This document shows positions 4,990-5,970 of a stretch of 64,000 nt of DNA, piece by piece. Numbering within the stretch: the stretch's first letter is position 1; every line of letters starts with the position of its first letter. Under the pieces are notes generated by a model, which searched no databases, was not told the DNA's origin, and saw only the letters and a program-made list of their open reading frames with translations. Origin of the DNA: Candidatus Nomurabacteria bacterium RIFCSPLOWO2_01_FULL_42_17 (lineage in GTDB: Bacteria; Patescibacteriota; Minisyncoccia; Phycocordibacterales; UBA9973); NCBI GenBank assembly GCA_001785985.1, contig MFVE01000005.1, forward strand, positions 112,533-176,532. The letters run 5' to 3'. The position numbers and the translations under genes are program-made.

Positions 4990-5970
4990 ATGCAAAGCAA
5001 ACTAACAGGCAAACACGTAGACGAATCATATTTAGACCTCTTGGAACATATCTTGAAAAATGGCGCGACCAAGACTGACCGCACGGGCACTGGCACAAAA
5101 AGCCTGCTCGGATATCAAATGCGTTTTGATCTATCTGATGGCTTTCCCCTTCTGACTACAAAGAAAGTGCCGATCAAATCCATCATTCACGAATTGCTAT
5201 GGTTCATGCGCGGAGACACAAATTTAAAATATTTGGCGGATAATAACGTACACATCTGGGACGAATGGCCATACAAAGCTTATCTGATTAAAAATAAAAT
5301 GAATGTGCCAAAGACTGGTAGTGAAGAATGGAACACCGGCCTAAAAGAATTTATCGAAAAAATAAAGACAGATGAAAAATTCTCCAAAGAATATGGAAAC
5401 CTCGGGCCCATTTACGGATATCAATGGAGAAGCTGGCCCGCCTACGCCGAGGCTTCGGCGGGTAAACCCGCTCACAAATATCACATTGATCAATTGAAAA
5501 ATGTAATAGAAGACATCAAGAAAACCCCAGACTCGCGTCGGCTTATTGTATCCGCTTGGAACGTGGCCGACATAGATGAGATGGCAAAGGCCGGACTCCC
5601 CCCCTGCCATTGTTTTTTTCAATTTTATGTAGTCGATGGCAAACTCTCTTGCCAGCTTTATCAGCGTTCATGCGACACATTTCTCGGCGTTCCATTCAAC
5701 ATCGCTTCCTACGCTTTATTCACGATGATCATCGCGCAGATTTGCGGACTAAAGCCTGGAGAATTTGTCTGGACTGGAGGCGATGTGCATCTATATTCCA
5801 ATCATTTAGAACAAGCAAAACTTCAGATCTCTCGCAGGAGTGACATCCGCCCTATGCCAAAGATGAAAATAAATCCAAATAAAAATAAAATAGAAGATTT
5901 CGTTATAGAAGATTTTGAATTGGTTGATTATAATCCTCACGATAGTATCAAGGCGCCTATCGCCGTATAG
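4990..5970 (+). CDS. thyA: Thymidylate synthase. The ORF track starts at 4945, but alignment of the N-terminus to E. coli ThyA favours the ATG at 4990.
   Basis: [45 protein letters not shown]; catalytic-Cys region [11 protein letters not shown]; [22 protein letters not shown]. Confidence 0.9.

Follow-up and report, generated by a model that had tools for sequence, protein, structure and literature searches.

A dispersed 30-nt GC-rich repeat as the probable source of an extra loop in thymidylate synthase of a Nomurabacteria genome

The stretch of DNA analyzed here (the window, 64 kb, ~40% GC) comes from a genome of the Patescibacteria (candidate phyla radiation [CPR]), that of Candidatus Nomurabacteria bacterium RIFCSPLOWO2_01_FULL_42_17, and carries the thymidylate synthase gene thyA at positions 4990 to 5970 of the plus strand (326 amino acids, from the list of open reading frames [ORFs]), with a dihydrofolate reductase gene next after it. 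The encoded protein is 100% identical to the ThyA of the named bacterium, belongs to Pfam family PF00303, and matches ThyA structures in PDB with E values down to 1e-105. The subject of this report is a segment of thyA at positions 5437 to 5462, CCCGCCTACGCCGAGGCTTCGGCGGG, and the extra protein loop to which it contributes. The segment is read in frame through the codons P-A-Y-A-E-A-S-A-G, and GC content reaches 80% over 30 nt at the insert against ~42% for the surrounding 2 kb. A previous sequence-only reading of the window had described a 28-bp element here; its coordinates and sequence were correct, while the length is 26 nt.

The loop was placed by comparison with the 120 closest ThyA homologues (79 to 92% identity). 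Most of them (95/120) have the short form WP(A/T)PNGKHIDQ, with the same length as in E. coli, while 17 carry the window's loop peptide or near variants of it (YAPALAGKP, YAKASAGKL, and YAEATSSKP) and 8 carry different inserts at the same site (YAKASEGKPT, FAKASLGKPE, SPKQSEGGPASNGEAKPT, and others). One genome per GTDB species supplied 80 thyA loci, of which 78 had a readable motif; none of these 78 had the thyA-type insert, and the spacing from W to IDQ was seven residues in nearly all. Related ThyA sequences thus do not all carry the loop, and the estimate of about 9 extra residues made in the sequence-only reading stands, since sequence alignment with the solved structure PDB 6auj leaves a gap of 9 residues. 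Another solved ThyA, 7ta9, has a loop of like length at the same position, which indicates that this position tolerates extra residues. In DNA, the relatives that lack the loop have TGG CCT GCG CCA AAC GGC AAG CAC, and the window has TGG CCC GCC TAC GCC GAG GCT TCG GCG GGT AAA CCC GCT CAC AAA TAT CAC. Protein and codon alignments delimit a lineage-specific coding segment of 13 codons (5443 to 5481, plus strand) that replaces the four codons of PNGK and so adds a net 27 nt (9 residues) compared with the loop-less relatives. These alignments indicate that the loop is a derived state, an insertion. An AlphaFold2 model of ThyA had a mean pLDDT of 66, with values below 50 for residues 139 to 159, which overlap the loop; as this model was too poor overall, the position of the loop was taken from sequence alignment to the solved structures.

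The insert can pair in several ways. Its outer 5' arm, CCCGCC (5437 to 5442, plus strand), is complementary to GGCGGG at 5457 to 5462 and forms the 6-bp outer stem in the fold of the family-B consensus described below, and an inner 5' arm, CGCCGA (5445 to 5450, plus strand), is complementary to TCGGCG at 5455 to 5460 and forms the stem used in the DNA minimum-free-energy fold. Because both share one 3' arm, TCGGCGGG (5455 to 5462, plus strand), which overlaps the core GCTTCGGCGGG (5452 to 5462), they are alternative 6-bp stems and not one 26-bp palindrome. A third arm, CCCGC (5467 to 5471, plus strand), is a direct repeat of the 5' arm and can pair with GCGGG at 5458 to 5462 as a GCGGGTAAACCCGC hairpin; the RNA fold pairs 5457 to 5462 with 5467 to 5472. 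The thyA element extends past 5462, to about 5466 to 5471 (...GGCGGG TAAA CCCGC), and the 3' CCCGC is found exactly in 13 of 167 copies outside the window and as a looser CCNGC-type pattern in 22 of 167, that is, in ~10% of the family. Hairpin stability was considered as a signal and rejected, as both the thyA copy (z of -1.5 and -1.95 for RNA and -0.8 and -0.9 for DNA against shuffled sequence) and the family-B consensus lie within ~1 to 2 standard deviations of shuffles for RNA and DNA. With two alternative stems and a fold no better than that of shuffles, the palindromic CCCGCC/GGCGGG element of the previous description was overstated. The nonrandom feature of the insert is the sequence itself, not the stability of its hairpin. 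In the 64 kb, GCTTCGGCGGG occurs in three exact copies and one with a single mismatch, against 0.49 expected, and four copies were reached in none of 100 shuffles.

To follow this sequence outside the window, a degenerate pattern modeled on the copies in the window (CCKCCNNCGCYNNNGCTTYGGCGGG) was run over public metagenome contigs. Results revealed at least 120 stretches in contigs of 33 to 70% GC (among the matches listed), and the same pattern found 42 stretches in IMG/VR viral contigs. Such a scan returns well-conserved copies only, and the apparent conservation of the family, here termed family B, is inflated accordingly. When 121 copies were aligned with their flanks, positions left unspecified by the pattern were strongly biased and information fell to zero just outside a ~30-nt unit, which argues that the matches are not due to chance. 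Among the matches listed, the two bases following CCKCC were TT in 89 of 167 copies, the central triplet was AAG, GAG, AAA, or GAA in 134, and the four bases following GGCGGG were CAGG or CAAG in 87, giving the consensus C-CCGCC-TTCGC-Y-RAR-GCTTCGGCGGG-CA(A/G)G. An nhmmer profile built from outside (metagenome) copies only was run on the window, and its best match was the thyA copy (5437 to 5468, 32.5 bits, E 1.3e-7), in agreement with the family-B core recognized there by the sequence-only reading; copies in uvrC, uvrB, and murB scored about 15 bits. This top score makes the thyA loop the most canonical copy in the window rather than a marginal one. Taken as a 30-nt unit, CCCGCCTACGCCGAGGCTTCGGCGGGTAAA (5437 to 5466, plus strand, sense to the gene), it encodes 10 residues.

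Translated directly, the consensus is free of stop codons in all six frames; one strand gives the peptides PAFAKASAGK, PPSPRLRRA, and RLRQGFGGQ, and the other gives LPAEALAKA, LARRSLGEGG, and CPPKPWRRR. Inside real genes, copies among the matches listed used both orientations about equally and five of the six frames. Ala-rich frames predominated in low-GC contigs, where the CPPKPWRRR frame was found in no long ORF among the matches listed; such a bias is what selection on tolerated peptides would produce. With both orientations and several frames in use, the conservation cannot have originated at the level of the protein or of the sense RNA. Copies adjacent in inverted orientation or in tandem were present in the high-GC contigs L124, L173, and L122, and almost none were seen in the ~1.4 Mb of loci around thyA except those in thyA and murB. 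Searches of PLSDB plasmids and INPHARED phages gave partial, chance-level matches only, so that the family is essentially absent from these cultured-organism collections.

Host genes outside the window were named by reading translations. In low-GC contigs, in which long ORFs are trustworthy, hosts included a P-type ATPase (with two copies that differ in phase), GatB, an AroA-Cmk fusion, a phosphoenolpyruvate-utilizing enzyme, an ABC-F ATPase, a sulfatase, and a Ser/Thr kinase, and higher-GC hosts included methionyl-tRNA synthetase, translation initiation factor IF-2, and ThiC. Two of these hosts gave pairs of close orthologues that differ by exactly the 10-residue insert. Orthologous sulfatases of Candidatus Udaeobacter (Verrucomicrobiota), with identities of at least 82%, occur as a GEDG-PAGRGF form of 473 amino acids and an insert form of 483 amino acids; the insert reads CCC GCC TAC GCC GAG GCT TCG GCG GGC AAG CCT GCT, and its core is identical to the thyA core at 26 of 26 positions. 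In ThiC of Bradyrhizobium/Rhodopseudomonas-like Alphaproteobacteria, EDG-MAQMS stands against EDG-LPAEAVAKAG-MAAMS among orthologues, and the ThiC of a cultured R. palustris has the variant LPADAFAKAG. Judged from these sequences, the unit is polymorphic, present in some and absent from other close orthologues, in at least three phyla (Patescibacteria, Verrucomicrobiota, and Alphaproteobacteria). The sulfatase family also carries a polymorphic DPARSATALQAG insert of the family-A type described below. The same ThiC orthologues (P0241 to P0360, 610 to 825 amino acids) have further polymorphic short inserts near the C terminus (PHPEEARGAVSKDEAEK, DKRAVAGG, and a doubled LPADLSAEASAKAEALAKAG).

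These comparisons bear on the simplest account of the loop, an ordinary adaptive extension of ThyA in which GC-richness and partial palindromy would stem from Ala, Gly, Pro, and Ser codons with no repeat element involved. Such an account fits a position at which thymidylate synthases tolerate loops of varied length (7ta9 being comparable), a loop peptide that at least 17 protein clusters preserve fairly well (the window and L082 differ by seven synonymous codons and one nonsynonymous codon), and a hairpin no stabler than shuffled sequence. However, it is already contradicted by nucleotide identity across genes: the identical 26 nt are found in a verrucomicrobial sulfatase as an insert that is present or absent, dozens of unrelated genes contain the unit in both orientations and five of six frames, and a profile free of thyA sequences matches the loop at E 1.3e-7. 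Codon usage by itself could not give rise to this. We therefore regard an adaptive extension as very improbable.

Within its 64 kb, the window itself has four copies of family B and two of family A, all of them intragenic. Besides thyA, three diverged family-B copies were recognized. The copy at 53413 to 53442 (plus strand; SARRSRSEGG; nhmmer E 0.026) is antisense in uvrB (52227 to 54446, minus strand) and coincides with an exact 10-residue gap against PDB 9gy7; the copy at 49484 to 49513 (plus strand; GPPKRSEGG; E 0.022), which is one base shorter, is antisense in uvrC (48334 to 49566, minus strand) and coincides with a 9-residue gap against PDB 1yd6. The third (9793 to 9823, minus strand; PSDAPALAGK; E 0.032) lies sense in murB (9575 to 10738, minus strand) and adds 30 nt that four MurB orthologues lack and that the locus L084 also carries. 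A family-A copy with an inverted A-like copy nested in its loop (10007 to 10078, minus strand; 72 nt, 24 residues) is also present in murB, where its RNA folds at -42.5 kcal/mol (z -5.5); relative to orthologues, it is a clean insertion of 72 nt between GAA AAA and AAT AAA. L084 shares the murB sites of the window and has at the family-A site an 18-nt stretch, which we read from its sequence as a remnant of both family-A termini. A third repeat type is represented in murB by a 39-nt insertion at 10460 to 10505, composed of two adjacent CCCGAC...GTCGGG hairpins (APTPQRVGVPTES) and absent from five orthologues. The other family-A copy is a 36-mer, CCCGCCTGCAACGCTATGCGTAGCATTGCGGGCAGG (14776 to 14811, minus strand), which encodes PARNATHSVAGG in frame in a pseudouridine synthase gene (14215 to 14901, minus strand; Pfam PF00849), forms a strong hairpin (z of -5.0 for RNA and of -3.2 and -4.0 for DNA), and recurs identically in the metagenome locus L101.

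Families A and B are linked, as had been proposed from the window alone. The 9-nt termini of family A (CCCGCCTGC-...-GCGGGCAGG) recur in a frequent family-B subvariant, CCCGCCTGC-GCCGAGGCTTCG-GCGGGCAGG, and identical or near-identical family-A 36-mers occur in contigs retrieved via family B. The link had been drawn through the shared start CCCGCCT, and that part did not hold up so well: the 7-mer alone has 13 copies in the window against 3.7 expected, most of them outside the elements, and is a weak connection, whereas the 9-nt termini provide a sound one.

Several further GC-rich stretches were observed in the same genes or in others of the window. In uvrB, a GC-rich insertion of ~38 residues (53045 to 53091, residues 443 to 481, including WPGGGAPENRGPEQ) is seen against PDB 9gy7, and the C-terminal linker holds a family-B-like stretch, TAARRSLDVGGKK (52394 to 52426). 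A very stable GC-rich hairpin, CCCGTTAGAGGCCGCGAGGGCTCGCAGCGACCCTCTGCCTCTAACGGG (60432 to 60472, -37 kcal/mol for RNA), encodes NPVRGREGSQRPSASNGI within an 800-amino-acid ORF (58457 to 60859, minus strand) and is probably an in-frame palindromic insert of another family; the host was read by eye as DNA polymerase I, a label unconfirmed by any tool. An ABC-F gene of the window (42879 to 44408, minus strand) contains a GC-rich hairpin different from family B, NSLALRERGGVRV (44055 to 44091). The corresponding loop holds the family-B unit TSFAKASAGQG in L147 (2458 to 2560) and the insert-free EKCFKE in L011 (5377 to 5464), so that comparison of the three places different elements at one ABC-F site. 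A glycosyltransferase-like ORF of 456 amino acids in the metagenome contig L105 (38% GC, 5355 to 6722) carries PPPSPYSSPPGGEGGVRE, a peptide resembling RERGGVRV of the window's ABC-F protein, which suggests, as far as peptide resemblance goes, that this hairpin family is dispersed too.

Within thyA, the history of the loop was followed among relatives. The thyA relative L083 carries TACGCTCCCGCTTTGGCGGGCAAGCCC, which is identical to the window's murB copy at 23 of 27 positions (as counted from the printed sequences), and L085 has the antisense-type peptide SPKQSEGGP at the same loop site. In L081, the palindrome has been lost (GCA ACG AGC TCC) and the loop kept. In a comparison of five thyA genes, loop codons showed about equal numbers of synonymous and nonsynonymous differences, indicating laxer constraint than on the rest of ThyA. 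A neighbor-joining tree of the 120 ThyA proteins, with the loop columns removed, was star-like with the loop bearers scattered; DNA identities of thyA genes to the window were ~72 to 81% with or without the loop, and flanking-gene identities did not follow the loop, the window being placed nearer to some loop-less genomes. This scatter may reflect poor resolution or recombination, and the shared AHKY tail argues for one origin of the main loop allele.

Several known repeat systems resemble the unit. The closest are the repetitive extragenic palindromes (REPs) of the GTAG/CGTC superfamilies, GC-rich stem-loops of 20 to 40 bp that also occur inside genes, where single units encode 7 to 9 in-frame residues; intragenic copies have been reported in uvrA/B/C/D, polA, recBCD, and dnaE of Opitutus, Rickettsia, Thauera, and others, some families are common to distant organisms, several may occur per genome, and units are found as singlets, inverted dimers, and tandems (Di Nocera et al. 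2013, PMC3733652). The present family resembles them in its 30-nt unit, whose stems are an outer one of 6 bp (CCCGCC/GGCGGG) and a short inner one, in the dimers and tandems of some high-GC contigs, and in the inserts in uvrB and uvrC, which echo the REP host list (a polA host is here a by-eye label only). The peptide of GTAG-1 REPs, AGKPA(S/P)T, also matches the SAGKPA part of the thyA loop. A Pseudomonas-type GTAG-1 REP (that of P. putida) was examined as a candidate and rejected, since the hairpin GCGGG(C/T)AA(G/A)CCCGC and AGKPA are shared and the tag and the remaining unit are not. Unlike the GTAG/CGTC REPs, the family-B consensus lacks both tags: as profiled from 121 copies, with information-free flanks, it begins with C-CCGCC... 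and ends with ...GGCGGG-CA(A/G)G, and CTAC is confined to a less common TA variant (15 of 167 copies, that of thyA among them), inside the hairpin beside the 5' arm. Its hairpin also differs, being a 6-bp stem around a conserved 14-nt interior and not unusually stable, and no REP-associated tyrosine transposase (RAYT) was present among the 30 window ORFs scanned. Of the REP-encoded peptides of the earlier survey that were compared, none matched family B apart from AGKPA, and hosts here include Patescibacteria, which lie outside that survey (PMC3733652).

Other systems share some of these traits. The Rickettsia palindromic elements (RPEs) are, in the accounts given of them by two later reviews, selfish repeats of 105 to 150 bp specific to Rickettsia that lie in frame in conserved, often essential genes and are translated and tolerated where the protein is exposed at its surface (Ogata et al. 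2000, as reviewed in PMC2229807 and PMC10969869). In-frame insertion in protein genes is common to both; however, the unit here is 30 to 36 nt, with hosts in at least three phyla and viral contigs. Similar to IS200/IS605 elements and to REPINs with their RAYTs, family B consists of short imperfect palindromes that show no consistent target-site duplication and appear to be nonautonomous copies far from any transposase gene. REPINs, however, are extragenic inverted doublets, vertically inherited in a lineage and tied to a single-copy RAYT gene, whereas the copies here are mostly intragenic singlets with the same sequence across phyla and no RAYT in the window scan. Families of bacterial miniature inverted-repeat transposable elements, or MITEs, measure ~100 to 200 bp (PMC2229807). 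Families A and B share with MITEs their terminal inverted repeats of 6 to 9 nt, of the type CCCGCC(TGC)...(GCA/GCG)GGCGGG, but not the unit length (30 to 36 nt) or a target-site duplication, which was not consistent in five pairs. Fungal mitochondrial GC clusters are likewise short GC-rich palindromes that invade AT-rich genomes, protein-coding genes included and sometimes in frame; they are organellar, belong to unrelated sequence families, and are not known in bacteria. Literature searches with nucleotide and peptide strings of the family returned nothing relevant. In-frame palindromic repeats in conserved genes, above all in genes of DNA repair, are thus known (PMC3733652), and this family and its breadth appear to be undescribed.

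Taken together, we consider it likely that the extra loop of ThyA represents an in-frame, translated copy of a ~30-nt GC-rich, REP/RPE-like selfish repeat with terminal inverted repeats of 6 to 9 nt. The comparisons show that a copy of the unit entered the codons of the WRxW-IDQ surface loop of thyA in an ancestor of one group of Nomurabacteria, and since the consensus has no stop in six frames and a length that is a multiple of three and the loop is tolerant, thyA stayed functional. The insert is now inherited as 9 extra residues that evolve faster than the rest of ThyA, and the loop probably has no dedicated function. The unit presumably spread by copying from existing copies, most likely as a single-stranded hairpin substrate for an HUH/Y1 transposase supplied in trans, as in REPs and IS200/IS605, while selection would have removed gene-breaking insertions and spared those that lie in frame in surface loops able to accept them. 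When hairpins transpose by the single-strand HUH/Y1 route, no target-site duplication is left, and the five empty/occupied pairs (thyA, the sulfatase, two murB sites, and ThiC) show no consistent one, which fits this route. As a general feature, a target-site duplication was rejected: CCCGCY repeats flank the thyA and sulfatase inserts, and nothing comparable is found at murB or ThiC.

The same flanks would also suit template switching or short-patch gene conversion during repair or replication, with no transposase at all: a stalled 3' end with CCCGCC or GGCGGG microhomology would anneal to an existing copy, copy ~30 nt, and return. The thyA and sulfatase sites already had a CC(C/T)GC(C/G/T) hexamer (Pro-Ala) at the point where the insert starts, and the hexamer is repeated after the insert, a murB copy abuts GGCGGA, the ThiC copy has GGC on both sides, and insertions are often untidy, with a few codons replaced (thyA and ABC-F); that neither a transposase nor a recurrent neighbor gene was seen, as detailed below, points the same way. 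In contrast, the family-A insertion in murB lacks any microhomology at its GAA AAA / AAT AAA junctions, the 3' CCCGC repeat is limited to that tenth or so of the outside copies, and template switching does not by itself explain the same 30-mer in different phyla and viral contigs. On balance, we judge this route unlikely.

A different possibility is that the 30-mer is a functional nucleic-acid signal, such as a protein-binding or processing site or a translation-tuning mRNA structure. Interior nucleotides, and not the stems alone, are conserved across hosts of 33 to 70% GC; the asymmetric GAA/GAA (or TTC/TTC) mismatch between the two stems is of the kind seen in protein-recognized hairpins; and the third codon positions of the thyA copy are slightly overconserved (0.66 to 0.74 in the element versus 0.53 in the rest, in the top 4% of gene windows). 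However, that conservation is inflated by retrieval of exact pattern matches only, the host genes have no common trait, and the L081 copy in thyA decayed without loss of the loop. Rfam 15 gave no match overlapping the element in 16 element-bearing loci at E<=1, and on the window only five tRNAs reached the gathering score. Since copies lie about equally often in either orientation to transcription and Rfam offers no matching family, we think a nucleic-acid function can be given hardly any weight.

A selfish repeat as the source of the loop has difficulties of its own, which weigh against it as follows. The event in thyA was untidy, with 13 codons standing for four (PNGK) and no clean insertion, and it is old, as loop-bearing relatives are only ~79 to 80% identical to the window's thyA DNA; on a star-like gene tree, its distribution may go back to a single gain, to recombination, or to repeated gain. 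The family-B hairpin is thermodynamically ordinary (z of -0.5 to -1.0), unlike those of typical REPs. The conservation of one 30-mer over genomes of 33 to 70% GC is hard to reconcile with purely neutral junk, and the excess at third positions could point to some nucleotide-level constraint. No Y1/HUH transposase, which may lie elsewhere than in these 64 kb, was found when 30 window ORFs that were small or unannotated were scanned with Pfam, and no neighbor gene family recurred over ~160 element-bearing loci except phage structural proteins, which viral contigs are expected to share; the mobilization step is thus purely inferred. A 185-amino-acid ORF (45552 to 46109, minus strand) matches RVT_1 at positions 78 to 203 only (E 4e-12) and appears to be a truncated reverse transcriptase with little upstream room; no link between it and the repeats was found.

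Some neighboring features of the window were also observed. An ORF of 122 amino acids (1311 to 1679, minus strand) belongs to the 23S rRNA-intervening-sequence protein family PF05635 (E 3e-20), and no rRNA gene is present in the window. An AT-rich repeat of 50 to 91 nt occurs in four copies (19328 to 19377, 22198 to 22296, 25401 to 25499, and 29009 to 29107), two of which are 89% identical over 91 nt; TATGTTATACT is present in all four and ATGCCCGA(A/G)GGAGATAAAA in three, and the repeat may be a shared promoter or leader or the repeated gene start of a variable region. An intergenic GC-rich hairpin (54742 to 54783, -29 kcal/mol) just 3' of a tRNA (54649 to 54721) and a perfect 23-nt inverted repeat (15826 to 15875) just past a tRNA pair (15682 to 15829) are probably terminators.

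More broadly, families A and B might belong to a pan-bacterial superfamily of ultrasmall mobile units with CCCGCC(TGC)...GCGGGCA(G/A)G termini, mobilized by machinery other than REP/RAYT and passing between phyla, perhaps via phages; we offer this as a tentative and rather doubtful extension. If true, such units would be a general source of new surface loops of 10 to 12 residues in essential proteins, with repeatedly hit hot spots such as the WRxW-IDQ loop of thyA and one ABC-F loop. The units make marker proteins vary in length and give unrelated proteins a spurious similarity (through peptides such as AEASAGK, LRQGFGGQ, and RRSLGEGG), and they could mislead alignment, phylogeny, and annotation of metagenome-assembled genomes. 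Sites that are polymorphic among orthologues in at least three phyla provide clean empty/occupied pairs on which insertion, loop tolerance, and crossing between lineages can be studied. Short in-frame palindromic repeats are among the few known routes by which selfish DNA adds residues to essential proteins, and the process is seen here in CPR bacteria, whose small genomes leave little noncoding room.

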